From: Verrucomicrobiota bacterium
GTDB lineage: Bacteria > Verrucomicrobiota > Verrucomicrobiia > Limisphaerales > J093
Assembly (NCBI GenBank): GCA_050012855.1
Contig: JBEKGJ010000019.1
Span: 837 to 64,836 of the forward strand
DNA length: 64,000 bases
Direction: 5' to 3'
Shown: piece after piece, positions 18,139 to 53,029 of the stretch
Layout of the letters: each line of letters starts with the position of its first letter
Position numbering within the stretch: position 1 is the first letter of the stretch
Made by a program: the position numbers and the translations under genes
The notes under the pieces: model-generated
The model's input: the letters and a program-made list of their open reading frames with translations, nothing else
What the model was told of the DNA's origin: nothing
The model's database searches: none

Positions 18139-18142
18139 AACC

Positions 18143-18649
18143 ATGCACACCGGCTCACTCCTGCTTCTCGTCCTGACCCTCGGCAGCGCGGTCGCCGCAA
18201 TGTCCCTGCGGAACCTGGTGCACTGCGCGCTCTGCGCCGCCATCACCTTCCTCTGCCTGGCGGCGTATTTCCTCGCCCTCAGCGCGGAATTCGTCGGCTT
18301 CGCCCAGATCCTGGTCTATGTGGGCGCGGTCGCCATCCTGATTGTGATTGCGATCCTGGTGACCCGCGACATCGCTGAGCGGGGCGAGCCGCTCGTGTTC
18401 AAGCCGTGGATTCTCGGGGTCGGCGTGGCGGTGCTGGTGGCCGGCAGCCTCGTTTCTGCGGTGACCAGCAGTGCGTTGGCACGCGACCCGCTGCCGCCGG
18501 CACCGACGGCGACGGTCGAGGCGATCGGGGAAAAGCTGATGACCCACTACGTCGTGCCCCTGGAAGTCATCGGCCTGCTGCTGACGGTGGCGCTGCTGGG
18601 TGCGGTGCTGCTGGCGCGGCCGCAGAAGGAGGGAGGCAACCGTCCATGA
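18143..18649 (+). CDS. nuoJ: NADH-quinone oxidoreductase subunit J
   Basis: ATG at 18143 inside track ORF 18068-18649. AEFVGFAQILVYVGAVAILIVIAIL. Confidence 0.85.
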   Translation: MHTGSLLLLVLTLGSAVAAMSLRNLVHCALCAAITFLCLAAYFLALSAEFVGFAQILVYVGAVAILIVIAILVTRDIAERGEPLVFKPWILGVGVAVLVAGSLVSAVTSSALARDPLPPAPTATVEAIGEKLMTHYVVPLEVIGLLLTVALLGAVLLARPQKEGGNRP

Positions 18650-18957
18650 TGAGTCTGCAAAGCTATTTGATTCTCGCCGCGCTCTTGTTCAGCATCGGGC
18701 TGGCGGGCGCGCTGACGCGCCGCAACGCCGTCCTGGTCTTGGTCGGGATCGAACTCATGCTGAACGCCGCCAATCTCAATTTCATCGCCTTCTGGCGCTT
18801 CGGGCCGCATCCCGAGGCCCTGACCGGCATCCTGTTCGCCTTGTTTTCCATCGGCATCGCCGCGGCGGAGGCGGCCGTTGGCCTCTCCCTCATCATCGCC
18901 ATCCAACGCCACTATCAAACCACCAGCCTGGACCGGGTGGATTCGCTGAAGGGGTGA
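18646..18957 (+). CDS. nuoK: NADH-quinone oxidoreductase subunit K
   Basis: RRNAVLVLVGIELMLNAANLNFIAF...AAAEAAVGLSLIIAI. ATGA overlap with nuoJ. Confidence 0.9.
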   Translation: MMSLQSYLILAALLFSIGLAGALTRRNAVLVLVGIELMLNAANLNFIAFWRFGPHPEALTGILFALFSIGIAAAEAAVGLSLIIAIQRHYQTTSLDRVDSLKG

Positions 18958-18958
18958 G

Positions 18959-22605: not shown

Positions 22606-22607
22606 CC

Positions 22608-25609: not shown

Positions 25610-25666
25610 TCCGCGCCACCCGTCTCTCGGCGCCGCCATCGCCAAGTTACCGGCCGGCGCAGGCAA

Positions 25667-26989
25667 TCAAGTCCCGCCTGAACCCGACGCCACGTCCACG
25701 GCCGGCAGTTTCGCGGCGTCCCGGTCTAGTTTGAGCACCACCACGGTGTCGCTCGGATCGCGGGCGCCGGGCGCGACCGAAAGTTCGATCCCGCCGGAGG
25801 TCTGGCGCACCGCGGCCCGGCCGCCGGATAAGACGCGACCGTTGATGATTCGAGCGGGAATGGCCGGCAGCCGAAGCGGTCCTTCGGGCCAGTTCAGCAC
25901 ATGCACGTAAATGGTCCGGCCCCGGAGGGTCGAGGCTCCAAAAGCGGCCGGCTTGAACGGGCCGCCGCGCGTGCCGTAGATGCTGGCGTGGTGGCGCCGG
26001 ACCCAGGTGCCGACCGCGCGCAGCACGTCCGCCTGGCGCGGCTCGATCCGCCCGTCGGGCATCGGGCCAACATCAAGCAGCAGGTTGCCATCGCCGCCCA
26101 CCGTCCGCGCCAGGATGCCGATCACCTCCCGCGGCGTTTTGATCGTGTCGTCCGGCTTCCATGACCACTGGGTTCCCAGCGTCATGCAGGTTTCCCAGGG
26201 CCGCTCATCGTCATAGCGGCCAATGCGCTGTTCCGGGGTGTAGTAGTCGGCGTGGGGGCTGAGAATCTGGTTGTCGTTGTTGCCCACGCCCAGGTCGAGG
26301 CGGTTGTTGATGACGATGCGCGGCTGCAGCGCTCGGGTGAGGGCATACGTCGTCGCCTGGTCGTAAACCGGCTCGTGGCCGTCCCAGTCAAACCACATCA
26401 GATCAATGCGACCGTAGTGACTCAGGACTTCGCGCAACTCCCCTTGGATCCGGCCGAGGAAGGCGGCGTTGCGCTCCGTGCGAAAGTCCGGATCGCGCCA
26501 GTCCATCGGGGAAAAATACCAGCCCAGCCGCAAGCCGCTGCGGTGCGCGGCGGTCGCCAGTTCCGCGCAGACATCGCGACGGAACGGGGTGGCGGCGATG
26601 TTGTACGGATCAACCTGCGAATGCCAGAGCAGGAAGCCGTCGCAATGCTTGGCCGTCAGGACGACGTATTTCATGCCGGCGGCCTGGGCCAAGGCGGTCC
26701 ACTTGCCCGCGTTGAAATTCGTCGGGTTGAACTGGCGGTAGAGCTGGTCGTAAACCGCCACTGGCGTGGGGCCGTTGTTCGGGCACTTGGGATTCGAGTT
26801 GGCGCGGGACCAACTGATTTCCTGCCCGGTCAGGCTCACCGGCCCCCAGTGAACGAACAGGCCGAAGCGCCCGTCGCGCCACCACGCCAGACGCGCCTCG
26901 TGCTGCGCCGGGGTTTCCGGCGGTTGCGCCAGCGCCGTCACCGAGAGCAGACCGGCCAACAAAAGACGGAGGCTATTCATGGTTCGCAC
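25667..26989 (-). CDS. alpha-L-fucosidase (GH29, 440 aa, secreted)
   Basis: Signal peptide. RFGLFVHWGPVS, AGMKYVVLTAKHCDGFLLWHS, GLRLGWYFSPMDW. Convergent with nuoN. Confidence 0.85.
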   Translation of the reverse strand: MRTMNSLRLLLAGLLSVTALAQPPETPAQHEARLAWWRDGRFGLFVHWGPVSLTGQEISWSRANSNPKCPNNGPTPVAVYDQLYRQFNPTNFNAGKWTALAQAAGMKYVVLTAKHCDGFLLWHSQVDPYNIAATPFRRDVCAELATAAHRSGLRLGWYFSPMDWRDPDFRTERNAAFLGRIQGELREVLSHYGRIDLMWFDWDGHEPVYDQATTYALTRALQPRIVINNRLDLGVGNNDNQILSPHADYYTPEQRIGRYDDERPWETCMTLGTQWSWKPDDTIKTPREVIGILARTVGGDGNLLLDVGPMPDGRIEPRQADVLRAVGTWVRRHHASIYGTRGGPFKPAAFGASTLRGRTIYVHVLNWPEGPLRLPAIPARIINGRVLSGGRAAVRQTSGGIELSVAPGARDPSDTVVVLKLDRDAAKLPAVDVASGSGGT

Positions 26990-29809: not shown

Positions 29810-29968
29810 CGCGCGCTATTCGTATTCGACGCGAATCCGGTAGAAACGAGCCGGGCTGTTCGCCGCGCTGTCAGTGAGAGTGATCGTGCCACCTGTGCCC
29901 GGCAATGTCTGAACGGCGCTCCAATTCGCACGAGATTCGCGAAGACAAGGCTGCGCGTGACGTCGCCT

Positions 29969-30053
29969 GTCCGTGAACGCAGCCCGGCCGATAGCAGGAT
30001 GCCAGAATCAAGACCTGAGTCGTCTAAAGCACGATACTACGGACCCCTTCACC
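29969..30053 (+). repeat. about 100-nt interspersed repeat, copy 1 (partial; other copies 42204-42304 on + and 46448-46547 on -)
   Basis: GTCCGTGAACGCAGCCCGGCCGATAGCAGGATGCCAGAATCAAGACCTGAGTCGTCTAAAGCACGATACTACGGACCCCTTCACC, aligned by eye to the other two copies. Confidence 0.85.
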
Positions 30054-38474: not shown

Positions 38475-40163
38475 GTGGGCATGGAACTCTGTCTGCGCCT
38501 GGCAACCATGTTGCTCGTCGGCACATTTTTGCACCTGGGGCAAACAGGCTTCGCCGCGCCCGCCGCGCCCGGCTCTCCCCCGACGCCGCAGGGCGCCTAC
38601 TTCGCCCGGAAGGCTTATCGAGCGGCGCCGTTGCCCGAGTTCGCCCGGACGCGGGACCTGCTGCCGTCGCCGATCTTGGCGGAGCGGCCGGAGTGGGTGG
38701 CCATGTACTGGAAGGCCTGGGAACTCGCCTTCAAAAACTTCCACGAACCGGCCCCGGGCAGCGGCTACGTTTCGCAATTCATTGACGCCGCTTTCAACCA
38801 GAACATTTTTCAGTGGGACACCTGCTTCATGACGATGTTCTGCAATTACGGGCATCCCCTGGTCCCGGGCATTGGATCGCTCGACAACTTCTACGCCAAG
38901 CAACACGCGGACGGGGAAATCTGCCGGGAAATTGACCGCAGCACGGGCGGCGATTACCGCGAATGGGTCAACCACGAAGACCAACCGCTGTTCAGCCGCT
39001 GGGGGTGGGCTGGCGTTCGTAATGACCCCGTCATTTACCTGGGCCGGCCGGTCCCGGAGCCGCACCCCGTTCTCACGCTCGATGGGCTCAACCACCCGAT
39101 CCTGGCCTGGGCCGAATTGGAGAGTCTCCGCCTTACGGGCGACCGGGAACGGTTGGGCCGCGTCTATGGGCCGCTGGTTCACTACTACCGCGCGCTCGAG
39201 AAATACCTTCGACAAGGCACCGGGCTTTACATGACCGACTGGGCCAGCATGGACAACTCGCCGCGCAACGCCTTCCTGAAAGGCGGCGGCGGCGCCATTG
39301 ACACCTCCAGCCAGATGGTCCTCTTTGCCCGCAACCTCGGCACCATGGCCGCGTTGCTGGGCAAACCCGCCGAGGCGAAGGCGTTCGCCCGCGAGGCCGA
39401 TGAGTTGAGCGCGAAGATCAACAAACAGATGTGGGACTCCCGACGGCACTTCTACTTCGATCTCACGCTCGCCGGTCAACCCGCGACGGTCAAAACCGTG
39501 GCGGGATTCTGGACGCTCATTGCCGGCGTGGCTTCGCCTGCGCGCGCGCAAGACCTGGTGAACGAGCTGAACAATCCGGCGACGTTCAAGCGCCCGCACC
39601 GGGTGCCCACACTCGCCGCCGATCAAGCCGAATACGATCCCGCGGGCGGTTACTGGCGCGGCGCGGTCTGGGCGCCGACGACCACCATGGTGGTGCGCGG
39701 ACTCGAGCGTTACGGGCACACGGCTTTGGCCCGCGAGATTGCCCTGAACCACCTGGAAGTCATGGGCGAGGTGTTTCTGAAGACCGGAACCCTTTGGGAA
39801 AACTACGCGCCCGACGCTCCCAGCCCGGGCAAGCCGGCCAAGCCCGACCTCGTGGGGTGGAGCGGGATCGGGCCAATTCTCTACCTGCTCGAATTTGCCA
39901 TCGGCTTGAAGGCGGACGCCATGGCCAATGAACTGGTTTGGGAAGTTGATTCCGCAAAAGTCGTCGGCTGTGAACGGTTCCGTTTCAACGGGCACATTGT
40001 CTCCCTGAAGGCCGAGCCGGTGGCTGACGACCCTCATCGGCTGACCCTCTCGATCGAATCGGACAGCCCCTTCAAGCTGGTGGTCCGCCATGCCGGACGC
40101 CAGGAGAGTTACTCGGTGGTGCAGGGAAAAAGGAAGCTGGCGTTCCCCACCGCCAGGAATTAA
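38475..40163 (+). CDS. six-hairpin glycoside hydrolase (GH63/MGH1-like, 562 aa, secreted)
   Basis: Signal peptide. FNQNIFQWDTCFMTMF, GGYWRGAVWAPTTTMVVRGLERYG, GTLWENYAPD. An ATG at 38481 is an alternative start. Confidence 0.8.
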   Translation: MGMELCLRLATMLLVGTFLHLGQTGFAAPAAPGSPPTPQGAYFARKAYRAAPLPEFARTRDLLPSPILAERPEWVAMYWKAWELAFKNFHEPAPGSGYVSQFIDAAFNQNIFQWDTCFMTMFCNYGHPLVPGIGSLDNFYAKQHADGEICREIDRSTGGDYREWVNHEDQPLFSRWGWAGVRNDPVIYLGRPVPEPHPVLTLDGLNHPILAWAELESLRLTGDRERLGRVYGPLVHYYRALEKYLRQGTGLYMTDWASMDNSPRNAFLKGGGGAIDTSSQMVLFARNLGTMAALLGKPAEAKAFAREADELSAKINKQMWDSRRHFYFDLTLAGQPATVKTVAGFWTLIAGVASPARAQDLVNELNNPATFKRPHRVPTLAADQAEYDPAGGYWRGAVWAPTTTMVVRGLERYGHTALAREIALNHLEVMGEVFLKTGTLWENYAPDAPSPGKPAKPDLVGWSGIGPILYLLEFAIGLKADAMANELVWEVDSAKVVGCERFRFNGHIVSLKAEPVADDPHRLTLSIESDSPFKLVVRHAGRQESYSVVQGKRKLAFPTARN

Positions 40164-40365: not shown

Positions 40366-41205
40366 CTACTGCCCCCGAACCGTGGCATGAGTGCGCAGCC
40401 ACTGTAAGTCCAGGTTGTTCGCAGCGACCGGCATGAATTCCCATTTCGTGGCTTGCGTCCCCATTTGTTGCGACCGCAGGACTTCCGGAGTGCGCCACCG
40501 ATGGATCTCCGCGTGACCGTCAGCGAAAGTCAGACCGCCGGATCCGCCGTGGTAGCTGGCGGGCACATTGGGAATCTGGTTCGCGACCATATCGATGGCA
40601 AACTCGCCGTCATCAATGCTGTCATCACGCTCATCCACGAAGACGAGCGCATCGCTGGGGGAAATGCCGGTGATGGTGGCGCTCTTCCGATACGACTGAA
40701 ATCCGTCGTTCCAAGGCTCAGTGCGAAACCCCATCCACACACTCATGGAAACCGTGCGGACGACGGGATAAGTGCCGCTTCCTTCCTTCGCCATGATTTT
40801 GCTGGCCAGGCAGCGATACACGCCCGCCGACTTGGAGTAAGGTCCCAGGACGCCATATTTCGGATCCAACAAGTACACGGTGTTGGTGTTGTCCTGGTTG
40901 TTGACCTGCCGTGGGTCCAGCCAGCCGCTGACCCAGTTGCCAACGTTGGTGACGTGATTTGCCTCATCCTGCCAGTAGTTGCCCGCCAGGAAGTCGTTGT
41001 TGTCGTCGGCGTACATCACCCAGGCGAGCTGCAACTGCTTCAAGTTTCCCAGGCAATGGGCGGCGGTGGCCTTGGCCTTGGCTTTGGCCAGTGCGGGGAG
41101 CAACAGGCCCGCGAGGATCGCGATAATGGCGATGACGACCAGCAACTCGATCAGGGTGAAACCATACCCCCTCCGGGTCGGGGTAGTGGGCGCAGAAAAC
41201 TTCAT
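40366..41205 (-). CDS. prepilin-type N-terminal cleavage/methylation protein with H-X9-DG motif (pseudopilin-like, about 279 aa)
   Basis: [29 protein letters not shown], and [14 protein letters not shown] (H, nine residues, DG). ATG at 41205 preferred over the track start at 41250. Confidence 0.8.
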
Positions 41206-41416
41206 AACGTGACTCGCACTCGTTGTTGTTGCGTGTGTTTCGCCAAGCATTTACTGGACAGACCGTTGCTTGGCAAGTGTGCATCGTGTGGCACACCAGA
41301 AGAAATTGCCCGGTGGATGTCCCACTGCTCGCGGCCAACCCGTTTCACACGACGGGTATTCCCGGCATGGCGAGCTCGCCCCGGAGAACGGCGCTCACGA
41401 CCACGAACGACGGCGT

Positions 41417-42010
41417 TCACGGGCTGGATTTCGTCACCGGCTCCCCTCGAAGCAGCCTGACTTCGAGGGGGGACAATGTCAGCGAAGTGTCCACTTGACC
41501 GCCGGTCAGAACATCGTGTGCGGAGGCAAACCGTCCACTTTGGCTGAACGTCACGGTCATCGGCTCTCGGCAGTAATTGCACAGGTTCACCACCACGATA
41601 TCACGGGTTTAGGCGCTCCGCCATTCCACGCCCCAGACGGGCAGTTGATCGGCCCCGCGCAGTTCCAATGCCGGGCGGAGGTTCCAAACCGGTAATCGGG
41701 CCGTGAGTTGCGCGTGCACTTCGCGGGCGGAAGTCGAGCCCAGGCGGGAATTGATTCTCTCGGCGGGCAAGCTGGAAGCTCGCGGGCGCTCAAATTCGTC
41801 GCGCGTCAGCAAGTCCCCCTCGCCGATGAGAACAAACCGGCCCTTGAATCGCTTCCGCCCAGGCCGTCGCCTCTGGACAGCGACGAACTTGCGTTCCCGA
41901 GCGGGTTTTTGAAACCGACCCGCTCGGAGTGTTTGGGCTCCCACATTCACGCGCGCCGGCTGCAAAATCGGATACAATTCTGGTGGAGGATTCAAGTCCA
42001 TCCGCGCCAC
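41417..42010 (-). pseudogene. possible glycoside-hydrolase C-terminal remnant with in-frame stop
   Basis: After the TAA at about 41606 the same frame continues: RDIVVVNLCNYCREPMTVTFSQSGRFASAHDVLTGGQVDTSLTLSPLEVRLLRG. This resembles the terminal beta-sandwich of GH13-type enzymes. The assignment is weak. Confidence 0.3.
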
Positions 42011-42203
42011 CTACTCCAGCGCACCCCGCCAGATGTGCTCCCCCATCCGGCTTTCCAGTTCGTGGCTCCCGATGGACGGGCTCAGGCACTCGACTCCACG
42101 CTTGCCGGTGAGCACTGACCGCGAGTGGCCGGTTGCTCCGGTTGGCAGGCCGGGCGCGTCCGATCGATACGGGGCACGGGCCGCTGAAATGGGCCCCTCC
42201 GCG

Positions 42204-42304
42204 CCGGCATGGCATGCCCATGAACGCAGCGCGGCCGATAGCAACATGTCCAAATCAAGAATTGAGTCGTCAAGCGCATGATACTATGGACTGACCCCTC
42301 ACCC
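42204..42304 (+). repeat. about 100-nt interspersed repeat, copy 2
   Basis: CCGGCATGGCATGCCCATGAACGCAGCGCGGCCGATAGCAACATGTCCAAATCAAGAATTGAGTCGTCAAGCGCATGATACTATGGACTGACCCCTCACCC. Confidence 0.85.
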
Positions 42305-42403
42305 ACGGAAATGGCTTGGTCGCCACCGCCTGCTCAAAGACATCGTTGGGGACAATAATTGACTTGACCGTATAGGGATGGATGTTGGAAACAGGAACTG
42401 ATC

Positions 42404-43702
42404 ATGAGGGAAAAAACCGCGCCTCAGAGATTTGTGCTGGTCGTTGCGCTCATCGCGGTGGGCGTTGCCATGCCCGTGCTGTGGTACGGCGCATGCATTG
42501 GACGAGCACCCAGTATTGGGGCACCGGAGGCAAAGCGTCTGGTGAATGGGCAAAAGGCAGTGCTGGTCGACCTCGGCACGGCCTCGGAGTTGGCGGTCTA
42601 TCTCCCGAATCCAGTAAAATGGCCCTTCGAGTCCATCATGGAAACCCAGGTTCTGGATGACGTGCCTGATGAACTGCGCGGCCGGAAGCTACTGTTGGTC
42701 AGCACGGCTGGCATTCAGAGCGCACGCGCTGCGATGCACTTGCAGCGGATCGGAATTGACGCGGCGATGGTGCGCGGCGGCGCCCAGCAATACGCGTGTG
42801 CGGTGCCGGGCTGTTCCAAAGGAATGCTCCTTCGCGGCGACCGGGAGACGGATGCGGACATTCCAGCCTTCCGCGAAGCCACGCTGTATGAACAGTGGGC
42901 GCTGGTGATTTCCTTCTTTGGGATAAAGAGCGTCTATACCCTGATAACCGCGGGCATCGTGCTGATGCTATGGCGGCGACGAGAAGCGGATTTGGCAGCC
43001 ATCCGCTGGTCCATGATCTTGTTCTTTTTGGGCGAGGGCTGCTGCTTCCTGAACGTAATGTTCTTTTTCGAGGATTCCATGCTTCTGGAGCACCTACACG
43101 GTGTCGGCATGGTGCTGTCGCTCGGCTTTGCTTGCTATGGAGTTCTAGAAGGCGTTGACGCCCGGTTTGTCCACTATAGCAGTGATTTGCGTTGTGCCAT
43201 GCTGGGGCTCTGTTGCGTCTGCGACAAGCACGGCGCAACGGGATGCGCGTTGCGAAAGGTGTTTTTGTTATTGATTCCAGCCACGGCAGTCCTGGCGACC
43301 ATGCCGTTGTGCTCCCCGTTCCGGAGCATTGCGTACAATACACGGGTACTTGGCGTGCTGCACAGCTACCGGCATCCAGTCGTTCATCAATTGTATGAAC
43401 TGCGCTACCTGCCGGTGTTGGCCGTGGTCTTGCTCTGCGGATGTTTTGTGATCCTGTCGCTGATCGAGCGACGCCCGCTGCTGTATTCCAAAGTTCTGTT
43501 CTCGGCAGCACTGGGAGCGATGGGTTTCAGCTTGCTGCGGCTCATGCTGGTGGCCCCATTCAGTAACAACCAGGTGTGGTTCGCCTTCTGGGAAGAGGCG
43601 ACCGAGCTGTTATACGTCGGATTGGTTGGTGCGGTGCTGGTGTTTTTTCGGCGCGGATTGCTGGTGAACCCGCGACACAGTGAAGGAGACACGGGCGCAT
43701 GA
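42404..43702 (+). CDS. membrane protein: N-terminal anchor, Cys-less rhodanese-like domain, 7-TM Cys-rich domain (432 aa)
   Basis: The rhodanese-like segment is KAVLVDLGTASE...GRKLLLVSTAGIQSARAAMHLQRIGIDAAMVRGG, with Ser where the catalytic Cys normally sits. Seven hydrophobic helices follow, plus the loop CAMLGLCCVCDKHGATGC. Confidence 0.7.
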   Translation: MREKTAPQRFVLVVALIAVGVAMPVLWYGACIGRAPSIGAPEAKRLVNGQKAVLVDLGTASELAVYLPNPVKWPFESIMETQVLDDVPDELRGRKLLLVSTAGIQSARAAMHLQRIGIDAAMVRGGAQQYACAVPGCSKGMLLRGDRETDADIPAFREATLYEQWALVISFFGIKSVYTLITAGIVLMLWRRREADLAAIRWSMILFFLGEGCCFLNVMFFFEDSMLLEHLHGVGMVLSLGFACYGVLEGVDARFVHYSSDLRCAMLGLCCVCDKHGATGCALRKVFLLLIPATAVLATMPLCSPFRSIAYNTRVLGVLHSYRHPVVHQLYELRYLPVLAVVLLCGCFVILSLIERRPLLYSKVLFSAALGAMGFSLLRLMLVAPFSNNQVWFAFWEEATELLYVGLVGAVLVFFRRGLLVNPRHSEGDTGA

Positions 43703-45960
43703 TGTTTCCTGTACGGCTGCATTTATTTGGCCTGACCATGAGCGCGCACCAGCTCCTGGAACTGTTGGCTTACGGTCTCGGGTTTCAGTTGTATCGGTTC
43801 CTGCGGCGGCGCTGGCCACGGGGCCCCGCCATGACCCTGGAACAGACAGCCTGGGTGGTGGTCGGAGCGATCTTAGGTGCGCTGATCGGGGCCAAGATGC
43901 TGGCCTGGGTCGAATCGTTGCCGGTCTATTGGGCGCACCTCAACGACTGGAGGATTCTCATCGGAGGCAAGACCATCGTTGGGGCGTTGTTGGGGGGCTG
44001 GGCGGGGGTAACCCTGGCCAAGAGCAAGCTGGGCATCGGTCATCCCAGTGGCGATGTCTATGTGTTTCCGGTCATTCTGGGCATGTGCATCGGGCGGATC
44101 GGATGTTTCCTGGCGGGCTTGGAGGATCACACCTATGGCATCGCCACCCGGCTGCCTTGGGGTGTTGATTTTGGAGACGGGATCAGCCGCCATCCTACGC
44201 AGTTGTATGAAATTGCCTTTCTGGTGCCGCTGGCAGGCTGGTTCATGTGGCGGATCAGGACTGGACAGCAGCGGGGATGTATGTTCAGCCAGTTTCTGTT
44301 GGCGTACGTCGTTTTCCGCTTCTTCGTCGAGTTCATCAAACCCCGCTATGTCCTGCCGATGGCGCCGCTGAGCGCCATTCAACTAACCTGCCTTGCGGCA
44401 ATGGTGTACGCGGTTATTCAGTGGAACGCCAACTGTTGCGGCAACGTGGAGTCAGCCGGGAACTGCGGGGAGGTTCAGGACCCGGCGAAGTTCACATGGC
44501 TGTCGGAGGACAAGACATCGCTTCGGACAGATCGTCCGTCCGGCGAAAGCGAGTGCTACGGTTCTCAGGACGGATCGCCGCGGGTGGTCGAAAAGACCAT
44601 GAGTCTCTGCGCCCAATGCCTCCGGAGGATTGAAGCGCAGGTGGTGCTCGAGCACCGCAACGTGTATTTGCAGAAATCCTGCCCTGAACATGGCCCGCAG
44701 CGGGTCTTGATTGCAACCGACAATGCCTACTGGCAGCGCAGCCGCAACCTCTACCGTCAGGCTCCCACATCGCCCCGGCAGCGGAACACGGAGAGGCAGC
44801 ACGGCTGCCCCTGGGATTGCGGTCTCTGTCCCGATCACGAGCAGCACACCTGCCTTGCCGTCGTGGAGATTACCGAGAGATGCGATCTGGGCTGCCCAAT
44901 TTGCTATGCTGCGGCGGAAGCGGGTGGGGCACATCGGTCACTGGCGGAAATCGAGGACATGCTCGATCTCGTTGCGAACCGCGAAAGCAAGGTTGGCGTG
45001 CTGCAGATCAGCGGCGGTGAACCGGCACTGCACCCGGATTTGTTTACGATTCTCGACCGCGTGAAAGCCCGTTCGATTCGTCACCTCATGCTGAATACCA
45101 ACGGCCGCCGCATCGCCCAAGACGAGGAATTCGTCCGCCGTCTCGCCGGTTACATGCCGGGATTCGAGATCTACCTGCAATTCGATTCGTTGGTTCCGGC
45201 GACACTGCAACAGTTGCGCGGCGCTGATTTGACCGGCCTACGGCGCCAAGCCCTCAGGATGTTGAACCGCTATGATCTCGCCACGACACTGGTCGTCATG
45301 CTCGAGAAAGGCCTGAATGACCGGGAAATCGGTGGGATTCTGGATTTCGCCGCCAGTCAGCCATGCGTGCGCGGCGTCACCTTTCAGCCAATCCAGGCCG
45401 CCGGCCGTCTGGAAGGGTTTGACCCCGCCACGGACCGCCTGACGCTGACGGAAGTTCGCAGCGCGATCCTCCACCAGAGCCGCCTCTTCAGCTCGGCGGA
45501 TCTGGTTCCCGTGCCTTGTCATCCGGACGCCCTGACGGCCGGCTACGCTATCCGTCGCGGTGGGAAACTCACCCCGCTGTCGCATTGGGTTGATCCCCAG
45601 TCCCTGCTGGTCAGCCTGGGCGGCAATACGATTGCTTACGAACAGGATCCGAACCTGCGCCAGCACCTACAGTCATGCCTGCGAACCTCCCCGCAGGCGA
45701 TGGCGCGGAAACTGAAGCTGCAATGTTGTCTGCCGCTCCTCCCCGCCGCGGGCTCGCCGATCCAGTACCGAGATGTGTTCCGTGTGGTCATCATGCAATT
45801 CATGGACGCCTGGAGCATGGACCTGCGTTCCTTAAAACGCTCGTGTGTACATATTGCCAGTCCCGCGGGGCGCCTGGCACCGTTTGAAACCTATAATCTG
45901 CTGCACCGTAAGAAGACCTGGAAACCAAAACAACCCACCACGGAGGATCAATATGTCTGA
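43699..45960 (+). CDS. fusion protein: Lgt-like diacylglyceryl-transferase domain plus Tes/MJ0619-type radical SAM domain (753 aa)
   Basis: N-terminal part: IGRIGCFLAGLEDHTYG and GISRHPTQLYEIAFL, which are Lgt hallmarks. C-terminal part: CAQC...CPEHG, CPWDCGLCPDHEQHTC, and VVEITERCDLGCPICYA (CX3CX2C). Also ISGGEPALHPD. The start overlaps the upstream stop (ATGA). Confidence 0.8.
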   Translation: MMFPVRLHLFGLTMSAHQLLELLAYGLGFQLYRFLRRRWPRGPAMTLEQTAWVVVGAILGALIGAKMLAWVESLPVYWAHLNDWRILIGGKTIVGALLGGWAGVTLAKSKLGIGHPSGDVYVFPVILGMCIGRIGCFLAGLEDHTYGIATRLPWGVDFGDGISRHPTQLYEIAFLVPLAGWFMWRIRTGQQRGCMFSQFLLAYVVFRFFVEFIKPRYVLPMAPLSAIQLTCLAAMVYAVIQWNANCCGNVESAGNCGEVQDPAKFTWLSEDKTSLRTDRPSGESECYGSQDGSPRVVEKTMSLCAQCLRRIEAQVVLEHRNVYLQKSCPEHGPQRVLIATDNAYWQRSRNLYRQAPTSPRQRNTERQHGCPWDCGLCPDHEQHTCLAVVEITERCDLGCPICYAAAEAGGAHRSLAEIEDMLDLVANRESKVGVLQISGGEPALHPDLFTILDRVKARSIRHLMLNTNGRRIAQDEEFVRRLAGYMPGFEIYLQFDSLVPATLQQLRGADLTGLRRQALRMLNRYDLATTLVVMLEKGLNDREIGGILDFAASQPCVRGVTFQPIQAAGRLEGFDPATDRLTLTEVRSAILHQSRLFSSADLVPVPCHPDALTAGYAIRRGGKLTPLSHWVDPQSLLVSLGGNTIAYEQDPNLRQHLQSCLRTSPQAMARKLKLQCCLPLLPAAGSPIQYRDVFRVVIMQFMDAWSMDLRSLKRSCVHIASPAGRLAPFETYNLLHRKKTWKPKQPTTEDQYV

Positions 45961-46321
45961 TGATAATACCAACGCTCGAAGGCCTGAAGAACCGCCGGAA
46001 CCGCAAGACAACCCATCGCCTGCTGGGAATCAGATTCCCCCTCCTGAGGACAGGTCTTTCGCTCTACAGATGGTCTTAGGTGTCATTTCGTCGGGGTTGC
46101 TGGCCTCGGGAACGATCGGCTTGATAGTCGTCATAGTGCTTATGCAGCAACGCCTTCCCAATGGTGTGGGTTTCTTGGTATTGACGCTCATCCCGCTCTG
46201 CCTCGGGGTGCTGCTATTTGTCCAGCGACGCAAGTACGGACCGGGATTGGTGCCCGGACTACTCACGGGTGTCGGATTAATGGTCCTGGCCGCGGGACTG
46301 TGCTTTGCCATGGCCAGATAA
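45953..46321 (+). CDS. small membrane protein with Pro/Glu-rich N-terminus and three TM helices (122 aa)
   Basis: The ATG at 45953 lies 8 nt inside the end of the fusion gene. MSDDNTNARRPEEPPEPQDNPSPAGNQIPPPED, then VLGVISSGLLASGTIGLIVVIVL, FLVLTLIPLCLGVLLFV, LLTGVGLMVLAAGLCFAM. Confidence 0.6.
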   Translation: MSDDNTNARRPEEPPEPQDNPSPAGNQIPPPEDRSFALQMVLGVISSGLLASGTIGLIVVIVLMQQRLPNGVGFLVLTLIPLCLGVLLFVQRRKYGPGLVPGLLTGVGLMVLAAGLCFAMAR

Positions 46322-46447
46322 CTCGGGCGTTGGGCTTGCCCGGCAGCGGTCCTGATTTGGGTGCGGCACCGGATTCAACTGTGCGCACGGCATTCGTGCA
46401 GCAACACGCAGCTAGCGATCGTCGAGCTGGAAATGCGGGAAGGGGTC

Positions 46448-46547
46448 GGGAAGGGGTCGGTCCGTAGTATCGTGCTTTTGAGGACTCAATTCTTGATCTT
46501 GGCATATTGCTATCGGCCGGGCTGCGTTCACGGACATGCCATGCCGG
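46448..46547 (-). repeat. about 100-nt interspersed repeat, copy 3 (inverted)
   Basis: The reverse complement reads CCGGCATGGCATGTCCGTGAACGCAGCCCGGCCGATAGCAATATGCCAAGATCAAGAATTGAGTCCTCAAAAGCACGATACTACGGACCGACCCCTTCCC. Confidence 0.85.
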
Positions 46548-46766: not shown

Positions 46767-48362
46767 TCAGGAACGCGGTCCGATCAGAAGGAACGTCGTC
46801 AACTCCCCCTTGCCCTTGATGTCCACCAGACCGCGGCGGCGCAGGACAAACCGGTCGGCCAGTTTCGCGGCGGTCGCTTCCGTGATCTGGATCGTGCCCG
46901 GCTCACCGTGCGATTCCATGCGGCTGGCCGTGTTCACCGTGTCGCCCCAGAGGTCATAGGTGAATTTGTGGCGGCCAATAACGCCGGCGACCACCGGGCC
47001 GGTGTTCATGCCGATGCGCATCTGCAGCGTGGTTTCGTGGGCCTGGTTGTAACGGGCCAGCTCAACGAGCATGTCCAGCGCCATGCGGGCCGCCGCCTCG
47101 GCGTGATCCGGGCGGGGCGAGGGCAACCCCGCCACCGCCATGTAGGCGTCCCCGATGGTCTTGATTTTCTCGAGGCCGTGCCGCGAGGCGAGTTCGTCGA
47201 AGGCGGTGAAAATCAGGTCCAGCGAGCGCACCATCAGTGGGGGCGAAAGTTGCTCCGCCAGCCGGGTAAAGCCCACCAGGTCGGCGAACAGGACGGTGAC
47301 CTCCTCGAAGCTGTCCACGATCAAGGTTTCACCCCCCTTGAGCCGGTCGGCGATCGGACGGGGAAGGACGTTCAGCAGGAGGCGCTCCGACCGGGCGCGT
47401 TCGTCCTCGATCTGTTTCAGGTAAACGCGCTCGGCGTCGAGCAACCGCTTTCGTTCCAGGGCGGCGCCGACGCGGGCCCGCAGCAACACCGGATCGAAGG
47501 GCTTGGGCAGATAATCCTCCGCACCGGCTTCGAGGCACCGCGCGATGCCTTCCGCCTGGTCCATGGCCGAGATCATGATGACCGGCAGCGCGGCAAGCAC
47601 AGGATCGGACTTCATCCTGGTCAGCACTTCGTAGCCGTCGAGACCGGGCATGACCAGGTCCAGGAGGACGAGATCGAATGGTTGCGCCCGCAGCGCCTGC
47701 AGGGCCTCCACGCCGCCGCCGGCCACCGTCGGTGTGAAACCCTGTTGGCGCAGGCGCCGCGCAAGCAGTTCGCGATTGGCCTCGTCGTCGTCCACCACCA
47801 GCAGCCGGTTTGCCGCCCGGCTCGGGTCGGTCTGGGCGACCGGGGCGGGCGGCGCGAAGTCGGAACCCGTGGTCAGCACCTCGGGCTTCTGCGGGCGGGC
47901 TTGCGGCGGGCTTGTCCCAGGGGTGACCAGGCGGGCTTCCATCGAGGCCAGCCAGAGGCGCGCGGCGCCGGTGATCTTCTGCAGATCGGCGAGGAGCTTC
48001 GGGAGACCGAGGTCCTCCGCCTGCTCCTGCAGCATCTCGCCGTAGCCGATGATGTGGTTCACCGGCGTACGCAGTTCGTGGCAGAGCTGGAACAAGTTGT
48101 GCCGGCGGCTCTCGAAAAGCTCGTCGTCGAAATACTCCGTCATCAGCGCCACCAATTTCCGGCCCCCGGCGTGGATCTTCCGCAAGTCTGGTTGAAACGA
48201 TGCGGGCGTGTGCTCATCCTCCTGCAACAGCTCGCAATAGCCGAGGATGTGATTGATGGGCGTGCGGAGATCATGCCGGATTTGCGAAAGGTCCAGCTTC
48301 GGTGAACTGCCTTTGACGGAACCGGGCTCCGGCCCCTCCGATTTGGCGGGCGGACGACTCAC
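46767..48362 (-). CDS. response-regulator-coupled class III nucleotidyl cyclase with two N-terminal DHp (H-box) modules (531 aa)
   Basis: GTG at 48362 overlaps the upstream stop (GTGA). H-boxes IRHDLRTPINHILGYCELL and LCHELRTPVNHIIGYGEML, with no ATPase domain. REC domain: LLVVDDDEANRELL...LVLLDLVMPGLDG. Cyclase domain: VLFADLVGFT, KTIGDAYMAV, WGDTVNTASRMES. Confidence 0.85.
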   Translation of the reverse strand: MSRPPAKSEGPEPGSVKGSSPKLDLSQIRHDLRTPINHILGYCELLQEDEHTPASFQPDLRKIHAGGRKLVALMTEYFDDELFESRRHNLFQLCHELRTPVNHIIGYGEMLQEQAEDLGLPKLLADLQKITGAARLWLASMEARLVTPGTSPPQARPQKPEVLTTGSDFAPPAPVAQTDPSRAANRLLVVDDDEANRELLARRLRQQGFTPTVAGGGVEALQALRAQPFDLVLLDLVMPGLDGYEVLTRMKSDPVLAALPVIMISAMDQAEGIARCLEAGAEDYLPKPFDPVLLRARVGAALERKRLLDAERVYLKQIEDERARSERLLLNVLPRPIADRLKGGETLIVDSFEEVTVLFADLVGFTRLAEQLSPPLMVRSLDLIFTAFDELASRHGLEKIKTIGDAYMAVAGLPSPRPDHAEAAARMALDMLVELARYNQAHETTLQMRIGMNTGPVVAGVIGRHKFTYDLWGDTVNTASRMESHGEPGTIQITEATAAKLADRFVLRRRGLVDIKGKGELTTFLLIGPRS

Positions 48363-48736
48363 GGTGCCGGAGGCGGCTGGAGGCAGGCCTGGATCTTCGC
48401 CAGAAGCCGTGGAAACTCCACTGGCTTGGTGTCGAAGTCGTCGCAGCCGGCTTCGCGGGCCTTCTGCTCGTCGCTGGCCATGGCGTGGGCGGTCAGCGCG
48501 ATGATGGGAATGGCCTTGGTCGCCGCGTCGGCTTTGAGTTGACGCGTCGCCTCCCATCCGTCGAGCACCGGCAGGCTCATGTCCATCAGGATCAGGTCCG
48601 GCTTTTGCGCCCGGGCCAGGCCGAGGCCTTCCTGGCCATCCACGGCGCAGGTGACGATGTGGCCCTTGCGTTCCAGGCGGCGCGAGAGCATGTCGCGGTT
48701 CATTTCGTTGTCTTCGACCAGGAGGATTCTAGCCAT
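48359..48736 (-). CDS. single-domain response regulator (125 aa)
   Basis: [17 protein letters not shown]...[17 protein letters not shown]...[11 protein letters not shown]...DDFDTKP. Its start overlaps the kinase stop by 8 nt. Confidence 0.9.
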
Positions 48737-51700
48737 GATTCGGTTGTTCCGGGTTGGTTCGAGGTCCCGGCACCACCGGCGGGGGCGCGGCCGTCGAGGC
48801 GCCCGCCACCAGCGCACGCACGGCCCCCAGCAGTTCGTCGAAACTCAGTGTGCCTTTTTGAACGATGCGCGCCACGCCACCATTCAGCCGGCGCCGGTCC
48901 GCCTCCGTCAGATCCTTGCTGGTGATCACCACCACCGGGATGCGGCGCCACTCGGGTCGGCGGCGCAATTCGTCGAGAAACTCAAACCCATCCATCTCGG
49001 GCATCAACAGGTCGAGCAGGATGATCGCGACCGGCCGGGCGGCCAGGATGGCGAGCGCCGCGCGGCCGTTGTCGGCGAGCGCCACCGACCAGCCGTCGCG
49101 CTCGAGGTTCCGTTCAAGCAGTTCCCGCGTGGCCGCGTCGTCCTCGACCACGAGCACCTGACCGCGGGCGGCGGTGTGGCGGTATTTGCGCAGGACGGCC
49201 GCCAGCCGGTTCCAGTCAATGGGCTTCGTGAGATACTCGGCCGCGCCGAGGGCAAAGCCGAGATTCCGGTCATCCACGATGGTCATCATGATCACCGGGA
49301 TGGCGGCCAGTTGCGGGTCGGCCTTGAGCGCGGCGAGCACGGCCCAGCCGTCCATGCCCGGCATCATGACGTCGAGCGCAATCACGGCCGGGTGGACGCG
49401 GCGGGCCAGTTCGAGGCCCTCCGGCCCGTTCGCCGCGCATTTCACGGCAAACCCCTCCTTGCTGAGCACGCGACCGGTCAGGTCCCGCGCGGCAGGGTCG
49501 TCGTCAATGACCAGGACGGTCGCGGCGTCCGGAGGGGGGCCGCCTTGTCGGTCCTCGGCGCGAAGATCCGCCTCCGCCGTCCCCGATTGGACCACGGCGG
49601 GCAGCGTGGCCGTGAAGGTGGAGCCTTTGCCCGGCTCGCTGGCGACCGTCAGGTCGCCGCCCATCATCCGGCAGAACTTGCGGCTGATCGCCAGCCCCAG
49701 GCCAGTGCCGCCGAACTTGCGCGTCGTGGACGGGTCGGCTTGGGCAAAGGCTTCGAACAGCCGCGCGATCTGCTCCCGGGACATGCCAATGCCCGTATCG
49801 GTGACGTAAAACGTGATGCGTGATGCGTGACTCGGCTCCACGGGCAGCGAACCGGCTTCACGATTCACGTCTTCACGTTTCACGCTCAGGCGAATCTGGC
49901 CCTTCTCAGTGAATTTCGCGGCATTGCTCAACAGGTTGAACAGCGTCTGGCGCACCTTGGTCAGATCCGCCCGCATGGAACCGATGTCAGCCGGGCACTC
50001 GACGGCGAACTGGTTGCCGTTGCGGGCGACGAGCGGTTGAATGGTGGTGGCGACCTCGCGGAGCATCGGCTCGACGGCGAACTCCTCGAGGTAGAGCGTT
50101 GTCTTGCCGGCCTCGATCTTGGAAAGATCGAGAATGTCGTTAATGAGGCTCAATTGATGCCTGGCCGCGGCGCCGATCTTCTCGAGATCGGGCACGTAGC
50201 CGGTGTGGCCGTCCTCCTGGGCCGATTCCTGGAGCATCTCCGAGTAGCCGATGATGGCGTTCAGGGGCGTGCGCAACTCGTGGCTCATGTTGGCGAGGAA
50301 CTGGCTCTTGGCCTGATTGGCGGCGTCGGCCGTCTGGCGGGCCTGTTCGGCCTGCCACTGTGCCTGCGCGAGCTGTTCATGCTTCTGCCGGATGCCGTCG
50401 AGCGCCACGCGCAGCTCCCGGTAAACGCGGGCGTAATTACGGGCCAGGTGCACCGAGGTGCAGGCCACGAAGACCACGACGCCGGCATTCGGAATGGAGT
50501 TGAACAGCAGCGAAAAGTGCCGGGCGGGGAGCACTCCCAGGAACAGCAGGCCCACCGACACCAGCCGTGCCAGCCAGCAGAGGACCAGGGTCAGGTATCC
50601 CAACCCGATCAGCCACGCGCCGTCCTTGCCCCGGAAGATGCTCACCAGGACGACGCGGACGGTTTCGACAAACATCGCGAACGTGACCAGGCTGGCAGCG
50701 CCGGACAAGATGCCCAGATTGCCCGGCTGTCCGGCCACCTGAGCACCAAAAACCTGTACCACGGTACCCAGCGTGGTCGGTTGGGGCATTTCCCCGACGA
50801 AAAACACCAACGCCAGCGGCCAGAGCAGGACGAGACCCAGAAAGACCCAGAAGACCCGGAGCGCGCGCGGATAGAATAGCGCGTAGAGGAGGCGCAGGCC
50901 GAGCAGACCGGCGGCCATCGCGGTGGAGGTTGCGAGCAGGTAATTGGCCGAACCGGAGCCGTTCACGTACGTTTGGGCGGCGGCGGCCAGCCCGAAGAGC
51001 GCGAAGTAGAGGTTGGTGGGTTGGCGGGGCAGCAACAGATAGAGCAGAAGATGGGTGCCGGTAAAGGCGAGCAGGAGACCGGCGAACAGATGGGCGATGG
51101 ACAGCGAACGCTTCTCGTAGATCGCCACCAGTGGTTGCGGCACCGGCAACCCCTTGAGCGAAAGCAGGGCGATCGCCCGGACCACCGGATTCTCGCTGTC
51201 GGCGGCACGGCTCAACGACTCCACCACGGGGACGCTGCTGCGCCCGGAGGCCCCCAGCAACGTGGCCGCGCGGATGCGGATCTCCACGCTCTGCGACTCC
51301 ATGGCGTTCACGAGAATCGGGTTGAGGGGCTCCAACTCGGGGCCTAACCGCATCAGGTCCAGGAAGCCGAGGTCCAACAGCGCATCGGGTGCCTGGCGCA
51401 TCGCGTCGGCCAGGGCCGTCACAAAGGCATTGGTCGTTGCCCTCGCAGCGGTCGGGCTCCCCAAGTCCAGCCCCACCGACTGCCGCGTGCCAGGTTGCAG
51501 GACCAGGCGCTGCGGCGCACTTACGCCGGCCGGAATGATCGCCACCAACTCGGCCGTGTCGTTGGTCGGATAAACGATCAGGGTGAACCGGCCGCGTGGA
51601 CCAGGTATCAAGGACTGAAGCAACTGCCCGCCCGAACGCAATTGAACCACGCTGGGCGGCAGCTCCCCGGCAGCGCGCGCCACGATTTGTCCGTCGATAA

Positions 51701-52538
51701 TCATCGGCACCGGGAAGGTCTCCGGCGCCGGCAGTTCGACCGCAGTGGTGGTGGCTTGCCCGACCAGTTTGCCGTGGCGGGCGTGCGGGGTGGCGTCATT
51801 CGCTGTGCCATCATCGAAGTTCCACAAGCCCTCCAGCCCCGGCTCTTTTCCGGTGAGACGCAGGAACATTCCCGCACGAATCTGCTCCGTCGTGCGCGCG
51901 TGGTTCCAGACCCGCACCTCGTCCATCTGGCCGCGCAGGCCGGTGACGGTCGGGTCGTTGGAGGTCCACACATTCCAGCCCAGCAGGTTCCTGCCCCCCG
52001 ACCCGAGCGCGGCGAAACTATCGGCAAACGCATTCGTCGCGATCCGGAGCCCGTCCAGGTAGAGGTGCATCCCCTGAGGTCCGGAGACGGCGGCGACGTG
52101 GTGCCAGCGGCCCGGCTGGAGCACATTGTGCCCCGCCACGCGCTCCGCGTTGCTGGCGGGCGACCCGTCCGGCCGGCGGGGCCAGATTTCGAATTCGAGA
52201 CCGGCCGTCCGTGCGTCCTGCGACACGGCCATGGTTCGGTAGGGCTGGCCGAAATCGAAGAACCGTGCCCAGTTGCCGAGGGCGTCCCATTTCACCCAGC
52301 CTTCAACCGTCGCCTCGGCCAGTGCGTTGAAGATGTCGGGCGGAAGTTCGACATAGCTGTTCGTGCCGTGAAGGTCGAGGACACGGTTGGGAACCTTCGG
52401 ATCCTGGGCGAACGCCGCGTGGAGTGGCAGCAGGAGGAGCACGAGGACGAACCGGGCAAGAACGTCGCAGGCGGAGGCTCGGAGCGAACGAGCCAACGGC
52501 GCGCTGGTCTTGGGCATGGAACTGCGGTCGTTTTTCAT
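48729..52538 (-). CDS. hybrid sensor histidine kinase: LamG-like periplasmic domain, HEAT-like repeats, 7-TM block, HisKA, HATPase, two REC domains (1269 aa)
   Basis: LamG-like: [14 protein letters not shown]...LYLDGLRIA...[18 protein letters not shown]. Multi-TM region. H-box [39 protein letters not shown] domains [13 protein letters not shown]...[11 protein letters not shown] and [13 protein letters not shown]...[11 protein letters not shown]. Confidence 0.9.
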
Positions 52539-52944: not shown

Positions 52945-53029
52945 GGGCGCGTGGTGGAATTGGCAGACACGAAGGATTTAGGTTCCTTTGGCGAAAGCCG
53001 TGCAGGTTCAAGTCCTGTCGCGCCCACCA
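52945..53029 (+). tRNA. tRNA-Leu(TAG): tRNA-Leu, anticodon TAG, with encoded CCA
   Basis: Acceptor GGGCGCG/CGCGCCC. D-arm GGAATTGGCAGAC. Anticodon stem AAGGA/TCCTT with loop TTTAGGT. Long variable arm. T-arm GCAGGTTCAAGTCCTGT. Discriminator A plus CCA. Confidence 0.9.

Follow-up and report, generated by a model that had tools for sequence, protein, structure and literature searches.

A fusion of an Lgt-like domain with a Tes-like radical SAM enzyme in a Verrucomicrobiota operon records a widespread bacterial module

A 64,000-nt stretch of contig JBEKGJ010000019.1 from a Verrucomicrobiota bacterium (assembly GCA_050012855.1, positions 837 to 64,836 of the forward strand; hereafter the window) contains a three-gene operon whose middle gene joins a homologue of prolipoprotein diacylglyceryl transferase (Lgt) to an enzyme of the radical S-adenosylmethionine (SAM) type resembling the archaeal tetraether lipid synthase Tes, also known as GDGT-MAS. 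The main new result is that this fusion records a conserved module, which combines enzymes of known kinds, occurs widely and is open to experiment. The core module consists of an Lgt-like protein, the radical SAM enzyme and a small protein in one to four copies, mostly encoded by separate genes. It recurs in hundreds of bacterial species from many phyla, including Bacteroidota, Bacillota, Acidobacteriota, Pseudomonadota and Planctomycetota. We tentatively propose, with a probability of about 0.42, that the operon encodes a membrane machine that would couple Lgt-type phospholipid chemistry to Tes-type radical chemistry on inert carbons of lipid tails, with the small proteins as acceptor or partner. 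Judged from sequence, the module probably builds an unusual lipid or an unusual link between lipid and protein.

The three genes, and all operon features described below, lie on the plus strand. The geneA open reading frame (ORF; 42404-43702, 432 aa) encodes an accessory membrane protein in which an anchor helix at the N-terminus is followed by a rhodanese domain and a seven-transmembrane (7-TM) domain. The fusion of the Lgt-like domain with the Tes-like radical SAM enzyme is encoded by geneB (43699-45960, 753 aa). The geneC ORF (45953-46321, 122 aa) encodes a small membrane protein, the third conserved module member and a candidate acceptor. The first two genes overlap by 4 nt (ATGA), and the ATG of geneC at 45953 lies 8 nt inside geneB (ATGTCTGA), 5 nt behind a Shine-Dalgarno sequence (GGAGGA, 45942-45947) read from the sequence. 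Because both neighbouring genes (40366-41250 and 46767-48557) sit on the minus strand, geneA, geneB and geneC form a self-contained operon. An earlier, sequence-only reading of this stretch had regarded the trio as one translationally coupled operon, and the two overlaps, the Shine-Dalgarno sequence and the orientation of the neighbours bear this out.

Three Pfam domains were identified in geneB, namely PF01790 (LGT; aa 5-240, E 3e-24), PF23545 (Zn_ribbon_HMPTM; aa 297-339, E 2e-16) and PF04055 (Radical_SAM; aa 389-551, E 2.5e-19). The motifs GRIGCFLAG, RHPTQLYE, CPWDCGLCPDHEQHTC and CDLGCPIC were all confirmed. Together with the matches to structures 7TOL and 5AZB given below, these domains uphold the earlier view that the middle gene combines an Lgt homologue with a radical SAM enzyme of the MJ0619/Tes family. 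The same three domains occur in a single polypeptide in 59 protein clusters (50-100% identity) from JGI, ENA, NCBI and Logan assemblies. The fusion is genuine, because clusters of different source carry the same architecture; an assembly or frameshift artefact at the domain junction was rejected on the same ground. The closest named relatives of both geneA and geneB are proteins from metagenome-assembled genomes (MAGs) of Verrucomicrobia and Tepidisphaerales, and the host probably belongs to the Planctomycetota/Verrucomicrobiota group.

The two halves of geneB are joined by a disordered linker of 44 aa (aa 247-290, 44437-44568; predicted local distance difference test, pLDDT, 32-36). The AlphaFold2 (AF2) model of the whole protein has a predicted template modelling score (pTM) of 0.59 with the linker disordered, and the inter-domain geometry of this predicted structure is not interpretable. 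A Cys-Cys pair (N-x-x-C-C-G; 44434-44439, aa 246-247) opens the linker. It is kept in eight of nine aligned fused forms, the exception being P0061, and is missing at the C-termini of unfused Lgt-like proteins. Among Tepidisphaeraceae MAGs, locus L031 has separate Lgt-like and radical SAM genes with an 8-nt overlap and locus L066 has the fused gene; since both belong to the same family, fusion or fission is evolutionarily recent.

Stand-alone relatives of the radical SAM part, about 470 aa long and 55-58% identical, are found in many phyla and ranked after the fused proteins in the homology search. Six of their loci, from Bacteroidota, Bacillota and Chlorobi-like genomes, were picked by radical SAM similarity alone (Flavilitoribacter, Metabacillus, a Chlorobi-like MAG, a Symbiobacteriaceae MAG, a Bacteroidetes MAG and a metagenome contig). 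In all six, the radical SAM gene directly follows a PF01790 gene of about 250 aa, with an overlap of 8 nt in five and a 42-nt gap in Flavilitoribacter. Directly downstream, every one of the six has one to three small ORFs without a Pfam family, all with the Cys motif described below. A pattern scan using one genome per species returned at least 595 loci. The best 80 of these are loci from Chitinophagaceae, Flavobacteriaceae, Sphingobacteriaceae, Hymenobacter, Saprospiraceae, Paenibacillus, Brevibacillus, Neobacillus, Heyndrickxia, Burkholderiales, Rhodanobacteraceae, Acidobacteriota, Planctomycetota, Longimicrobium, Fischerella and others. An Lgt-like ORF was found in 79 of 86 surveyed loci. 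All-against-all ORF clustering across 85 loci revealed no conserved neighbour beyond the three module genes, shadow ORFs aside. At the fused P0031 locus (JGI 3300075153), a 90-aa ferredoxin with two [4Fe-4S] clusters (Fer4) is encoded downstream where the small protein is expected, and its gene adjoins an aldehyde:ferredoxin oxidoreductase gene. This ferredoxin may serve as electron donor for the radical SAM enzyme.

The radical SAM half of geneB matches GDGT-MAS (7TOL) with E 1e-58 as a single sequence and E 9e-88 as a family profile. The AlphaFold model of geneB matches 7TOM/7TOL in Foldseek over 494 columns (E 5e-29, target TM-score, TMt, 0.72-0.73). A rubredoxin-like ribbon, C304-x2-C307-x20-C328-x2-H331 (44587-44715), coincides with PF23545 and was located in the family alignment A1; its spacing is identical to C9x2C12x20C33x2H36 of GDGT-MAS, as the ribbon is defined in PMC9433317. 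The N-terminal auxiliary [4Fe-4S] motif, C370-x3-C374-x2-C377 with H380/H383 and C385 (44806-44853), is invariant in A1, and C370/C374/C377 with the His correspond to C73, C77 and C80 with the His of GDGT-MAS (PMC9433317). Also invariant, within PF04055, is the radical SAM CX3CX2C motif (C395, C399, C402; 44881-44904).

Within the auxiliary-cluster domain at the C-terminus (45496-45918), alignments to 7TOL placed M699, I719 and the Cys residues 607, 676, 677 and 716. M699 is equivalent to the labile Met439 and is conserved in at least 90% of A1. The C-terminal cluster with this Met is implicated in a C-S intermediate of C-C coupling by PMC9433317, where Tyr459 is completely conserved in 1000 archaeal homologues and the active site of GDGT-MAS binds ordinary bacterial phospholipids. 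The Tyr459 position is Ile719 in geneB (R-S-C-V-H-I-A vs R-C-C-I-H-Y-A). C607, C676, C677 and C716 are invariant in this family; the Cys residues of isCMHF and PFCTYN in the Methanocaldococcus enzyme (MJ) align to Ile698 and Glu730, and C716 alone is shared. Against curated models, geneB scores 259-262 bits with Tes NF045702 (cut-off 450), the match covering the N-terminal 311 of 486 model positions. TrsS NF045646 is the best-scoring curated family, with 322-324 bits against a cut-off of 490 and an end-to-end alignment (model positions 2-434 of 441). The stand-alone relatives also fall under both cut-offs (TrsS score 337 bits). By sequence, the radical SAM part is Tes-like yet distinct, and by curated cut-offs it is neither Tes nor TrsS. 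The JGI protein name "7,8-dihydro-6-hydroxymethylpterin dimethyltransferase" was rejected, MJ0619 having been shown to be GDGT-MAS (PMC9433317).

The Lgt-like 7-TM domain occupies aa 1-246 of geneB (43699-44436). It matches E. coli Lgt (5AZB) with a profile E of 3e-13 and, in Foldseek, with E 2.5e-6 and TMt 0.56 over 280 columns, and its AF2 model shows the seven helices of the Lgt fold. The domain scores above the Pfam gathering score of PF01790 (85.9 vs 24.9 bits) and below the equivalog cut-offs of TIGR00544 (47 vs 118.9) and NF000778 (63.8 vs 334); unfused Lgt-like relatives likewise score under the NCBIfam Lgt cut-offs. Alignment of 21 family members to 5AZB was used to map the Lgt residues. 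Invariant and shared with Lgt are R133 (Arg143), Y203 (Tyr235) and R207 (Arg239), and E211, equivalent to Glu243, is Glu or Asp across the aligned members. The RHPxQLYE motif is conserved, with R164-x-P166 invariant and H165 in at least 90%. At the position of His103 in the H-G-G-L-I-G signature of Lgt stands Val94 (K-T-I-V-G-G-L-L-G-G), Asn146 of the G-R-L-G-N-F signature is replaced by an invariant Cys136 (G-R-I-G-C-F), Tyr26 is not preserved, and the periplasmic head between the two signature motifs has shrunk to about 27 residues. His17, Glu21, Lys91, Lys108 and Asp160 are newly invariant in the family, and Asp119 is present in at least 90%.

Arg143 and Arg239 are essential in E. coli Lgt, where they serve, with Tyr235, Glu243 and the RHPxQLYE motif, to bind phosphatidylglycerol. 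His103 has been proposed to be important for catalysis. These roles reportedly go back to work by Mao et al. in 2016 and Sankaran et al. in 1997. The domain is not an ordinary Lgt, as judged by its residues, because His103 and Asn146 are missing. We read it as a paralogue that would still clamp the phospholipid phosphate, with altered catalysis or specificity.

The geneC product has an acidic Pro/Glu-rich head followed by three hydrophobic segments. It had been described earlier as a 3-TM protein with such a head; segments and head are indeed present, and the head is not conserved in the family. In a pairwise search geneC falls into one cluster with small downstream ORFs from 53 other loci (54 of 67), and it matches the family profile with E 1.8e-7. 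The family was detected in 69 of 88 loci by profile and in five more by motif search, and 25 loci carry two to four tandem copies (among them L008, L009, L016, L017, L020, L022, L026, L045, L072, L081, L082 and L088). At a mean column identity of 14% (alignment A4), nothing is invariant except Met1 and a single Cys, which 98 of 99 members have after a hydrophobic stretch preceded by Lys or Arg. In geneC it is Cys117 (TGC codon, 46301-46303) at the end of the last helix (…LMVLAAGLC-FAMAR), the C-terminal sequence in the window being …QRRKYGPGLVPGLLTGVGLMVLAAGLC-FAMAR. The C-terminal segment of the family comprises K/R, about 16 hydrophobic residues and L-I-G-[FL]-[GSA]-[AITVS]-Cys, after which 3-22 residues remain; many of these tails end in [FM]H (…NFH, …GMH). 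Searches of Pfam and NCBIfam with the family returned no model, with scattered and inconsistent weak matches only.

The last helix of these small proteins looks like an internal lipoprotein signal peptide with a lipobox-like motif. The family does not have the canonical arrangement of [LVI][ASTVI][GAS]C at the N-terminus of a protein with a mature part, and position -1 is Ala or Ser in 32 of 98 members and never Gly (A-G-L-C in the window). From positive-inside counting, we infer that the basic loop is cytoplasmic and that the Cys lies at the outer membrane face. The suggestion of the sequence-only reading that the operon carries out an undescribed lipid or lipoprotein tailoring reaction is plausible, and it is strengthened by the finding of this Cys in the small proteins.

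In the AF2 model of geneA (pLDDT 82.8, pTM 0.82), an N-terminal helix precedes the rhodanese domain, and seven more TM helices follow it. geneA had earlier been called a 7-TM protein with a CCVC...C loop; the loop is present, and the anchor helix brings the predicted count to eight. The rhodanese domain (about aa 35-135, 42506-42808), probably periplasmic by positive-inside counts, matches 3GK5, 3MZZ and 1WV9 in Foldseek with probability 1.0 and TMt 0.68-0.78. Its relatives carry PF00581, and geneA itself has weak matches to the C-terminal parts of NCBIfam MoeB/sulfurtransferase models. The catalytic position is Ser100 (AGC codon, 42701-42703), so the earlier description of a rhodanese fold with Ser in place of the catalytic Cys holds for this protein. 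In an alignment of 19 sequences (A3), this column is Cys in at least 90% of the relatives, and the window copy lacks the active-site Cys. The identical geneA protein is present on 30 contigs while its relatives keep the Cys, and Ser100 is therefore a real lineage-specific loss; the rhodanese has probably been inactivated in this genome. The further proposal that the Cys-less rhodanese family is regulatory or serves in binding does not follow, because the loss is peculiar to this genome.

Within the 7-TM domain of geneA (42884-43645), whose helices were taken from the AF2 model, the residues E211, C214, H232, Y311-N312-T313, Q329, E332, R334, W396-E397-E398 and E401 are invariant in A3. The invariant polar cluster lies in the outer half of the membrane domain and includes a W-E-E-x-T-E motif. 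A loop with four invariant Cys (C264, C270, C273 and C281; 43193-43246), of low pLDDT and probably cytoplasmic, connects the helices 226-256 and 282-303. Foldseek against PDB gave no significant fold match for the membrane domain, with rhodanese hits and G-protein-coupled receptor matches of high root-mean-square deviation only.

The window trio is conserved in part. The Lgt-like, radical SAM and small proteins stay together across bacteria, and the rhodanese/7-TM gene was found in about 50 clusters and with fused forms only. Many of these homologues are on the same contigs as fusion proteins, at least nine clusters appearing to share a contig with a fusion-protein match. geneA lies directly upstream of the fusion in the window, in L001, in the P0028 locus and in L086, the L086 copy being without the rhodanese part. 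It is absent from the fused loci L003, L087 and P0031 and from all unfused loci surveyed. geneA is thus a lineage-restricted accessory: it accompanies fused forms of the Planctomycetota/Verrucomicrobiota type and no others.

In the proposed coupling of Lgt-type and Tes-type chemistry, the Lgt-like part would move a diacylglyceryl unit from a phospholipid to the Cys of the small protein at the outer membrane face. The cytoplasmic radical SAM enzyme would be tethered to it, through the flexible 44-residue linker here and as a separate coupled gene product elsewhere, and would act at terminal carbons of the acyl chains, making a C-C bond there or, through its cluster, a C-S bond. Positive-inside counts suggest that the radical SAM enzyme is cytoplasmic and that the Lgt-type site and the small-protein Cys face outward. 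Because of this arrangement, modification of the donor would come before the transfer, and the radical SAM step would most plausibly act on the donor lipid in the inner leaflet. The product would be a protein whose lipid anchor is cyclised or spans the membrane. geneA may take part in product processing or supply redox or sulfur equivalents.

Several points weigh against this proposal. At Tyr459 and apparently also in its C-terminal cluster ligands the radical SAM part departs from Tes, so it may carry out another reaction, and the absence of His103 leaves transferase activity not assured. The lipobox-like motif is non-canonical, with a small residue at -1 in about one third of the members and AGLC in the window. 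The acceptor Cys and the radical SAM active site lie on opposite membrane faces, which makes the order of steps a guess. In about 15% of the surveyed loci, the fused L003 and L086 among them, no small protein could be recognised in the vicinity. Ranking of the 80-locus survey used a fused query and so enriches adjacency; the six-locus sample corrects for this and is small. A specific form of the proposal holds that the module is a new kind of protein lipidation, in which a dedicated Lgt paralogue would modify an internal Cys and a Tes-like enzyme would provide a cross-linked macrocyclic or membrane-spanning anchor. This form we consider rather unlikely.

A pathway for free lipids would explain part of the same evidence. 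In that case the radical SAM enzyme would join the acyl termini of two phospholipid chains (e.g., iso-C15) to give macrocyclic or membrane-spanning lipids of the type of iso-diabolic acid or precursors of branched-chain glycerol dialkyl glycerol tetraethers (brGDGTs). The Lgt-like protein would be an anchor and lipid gate only, and the small protein a subunit with its Cys for cluster or redox contact. Most host phyla are rich in iso-branched fatty acids, the radical SAM part shows the GDGT-MAS fold and cofactor sites, and the loss of His103 fits a non-transferase role. [quoted passage not shown] The strict conservation of the essential Arg pair and of the new invariant Cys in the Lgt-like part suggests catalysis instead, and the signal-peptide-like end, invariant Cys and tandem copies make the small protein look like a substrate and not like a subunit. 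To our knowledge, the aerobic Flavobacteriia, Chitinophagia, Sphingobacteriia and Bacilli that commonly have the module are not reported to make membrane-spanning lipids. On balance a free-lipid product appears somewhat unlikely.

The small proteins could also be precursors resembling those of peptides that are made on the ribosome and then modified post-translationally (RiPPs). Their Cys would be lipidated and the chain then cut before it by signal peptidase II or geneA, releasing a diacylglyceryl-Cys peptide of 4-23 residues, possibly modified further by the radical SAM enzyme. The short tails of 3-22 residues, their frequent [FM]H termini and the tandem paralogues, as for precursor peptides, fit this idea, and a RiPP pathway that co-opts lipoprotein processing has reportedly been found (title of PMC12636315). 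The tail sequences, however, are unconserved and mostly hydrophobic like a helix end, and position -1 is often Ile, Thr or Val, which signal peptidase II disfavours. The Tes-like family consists of lipid enzymes and not peptide maturases, and the clustering of ORFs from 85 loci revealed no conserved protease or exporter nearby. A lipopeptide product is in our view quite improbable. The PF01790 score above gathering and the JGI protein names would agree with a conventional annotation, a housekeeping Lgt accidentally fused to an unrelated radical SAM enzyme or the pterin dimethyltransferase named by JGI. Scores far under the Lgt equivalog cut-offs, the missing His103 and Asn146, and the linkage of Lgt-like and radical SAM genes across many phyla make it extremely improbable, and the assignment of MJ0619 as a pterin methyltransferase was not corroborated, the enzyme being GDGT-MAS (PMC9433317).

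The surroundings of the operon were also inspected. The upstream neighbour (40366-41250, minus strand) encodes a protein with a prepilin-type N-methylation motif. The downstream neighbour (46767-48557, minus strand) encodes a HisKA-receiver-cyclase protein (adenylate/guanylate cyclase) and belongs to a signalling cluster convergent to the operon (46767-52538, minus strand), together with a single receiver protein and a 1269-aa hybrid histidine kinase that has an N-terminal Laminin_G_3 domain and two receivers. The 1.15 kb upstream of the operon (41251-42403) has no convincing gene and contains one copy of a dispersed repeat. A riboswitch or RNA leader ahead of the operon was rejected, as an Rfam search of this gap gave no match at E up to 1. 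Scans for promoters and terminators near the operon gave site numbers no higher than those of shuffled sequence.

An inverted 103-nt repeat lies on either side of the operon. Its copies at 42204-42306 (plus) and 46445-46547 (minus) form an inverted pair about 100 nt beyond the operon ends, and a third copy is located 12 kb upstream at 29926-30053 (plus); the copies are about 100-120 nt long with 78-86% identity and have no Rfam match. A mobile cassette bounded by the inverted repeat was considered and rejected. Because of the third copy, we read the repeat as one dispersed in the genome and not as marking where a mobile unit ends; candidates for its nature are an intergenic repeat, a miniature inverted-repeat transposable element and a small RNA. 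Elsewhere, the window contains its sole tRNA gene at 52945-53026 (plus strand; RF00005, 53 bits) and a 562-aa glycoside hydrolase of the MGH1-like/GH63/trehalase type at 38475-40163 (plus strand). Over roughly 8 kb (18001-26000, about 66% G+C), the AT skew is strongly negative (-0.20 to -0.30), which points to a coding region on a single strand that may be very long or biased in composition.

Full-text searching found no literature linking an Lgt-like gene to Tes-like radical SAM genes and no assigned function for their combination, in keeping with the earlier remark that the two domains had not been seen together in a characterised enzyme. The cited parts of the literature on Tes, GDGT-MAS and Mss and of a 2026 review of lipid-modifying radical SAM enzymes mention neither an Lgt-like partner nor a small protein. 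GDGT-MAS/Tes homologues of unknown role are stated to exist in bacteria in PMC8941075, PMC13159169 and PMC9433317. Such homologues have been noticed since 2022, and the question of their function is tied to the origin of the brGDGT palaeoclimate biomarkers. Many of them have an Lgt-like gene and a small protein with a Cys as companions, which offers a concrete, testable handle and cautions against taking the Tes-like subfamily of this module for a brGDGT marker. If the module were a new protein lipidation, many of the "bacterial Tes homologues" discussed for brGDGTs would belong to a protein-linked pathway in at least eight phyla. Lgt is regarded as a single-purpose enzyme, and lipoprotein biology would be broadened by a widespread paralogue that has changed catalytic residues and candidate substrates of its own. 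As a natural variant of the enzyme for C(sp3)-C(sp3) coupling, one that retains the labile Met, has lost Tyr459 and appears to have rewired cluster ligands, the radical SAM part would be useful for dissecting that mechanism. The module is present in easily cultured aerobes (Chitinophaga, Pedobacter, Mucilaginibacter, Paenibacillus, Brevibacillus), which makes experiments feasible.

Each part of the module can be set beside a known system. Residues 35-135 of geneA share the fold of single-domain rhodaneses (3GK5, 1WV9; YgaP/PspE types), and its relatives keep the active-site loop C-T-x-G-I-R-S; unlike these, the window protein has Ser at the catalytic position and an attached 7-TM domain with an invariant four-Cys loop. 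The last segment of the small proteins resembles a lipoprotein signal peptide in its basic n-region, its h-region of about 16 residues, the small residues before the invariant Cys and a predicted in-to-out orientation. It differs in its location at the C-terminal end of a 2-3-TM protein instead of the N-terminus, in having only 3-22 residues after the Cys, and in swapped -1/-2 preferences relative to [LVI][ASTVI][GAS]C.

Mss, the membrane-spanning lipid synthase of Thermotoga and Clostridia, is a functional analogue only, a radical SAM enzyme acting on bacterial acyl-tail carbons as we propose here. It is set apart by its published description as a different radical SAM family that is remotely related to Tes, occurs in anaerobes and has no reported Lgt-like or small-protein partners (PMC13159169). 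TrsS (NF045646, radical SAM (seleno)protein) is the best curated match, end to end, but the score stays below 490. With Tes/GDGT-MAS (MJ0619; 7TOL/7TOM; NF045702), the radical SAM part shares the whole-enzyme fold, the CX3CX2C motif, the identical rubredoxin-like spacing, the N-terminal Cx3Cx2C+His cluster and the labile Met (here M699). In contrast to Tes, it has Ile at the Tyr459 position, C-terminal cluster Cys apparently elsewhere in the sequence, a score below the cut-off and a bacterial host with ester lipids, and it is always partnered by or fused with an Lgt-like protein and accompanied by a Cys-bearing small protein, neither of which has been described for Tes. The Lgt-like part shares with Lgt (5AZB) the seven-TM fold, the GR-x-G signature with Arg143, the helix with Tyr235/Arg239/Glu243, RHPxQLYE and a C-terminus predicted to be cytoplasmic. 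It differs from Lgt in scoring under every NCBIfam Lgt cut-off, in the changes of His103 to Val and of Asn146 to an invariant Cys, in the loss of Tyr26 and of the periplasmic head, and in the genetic linkage of its gene to a radical SAM enzyme.

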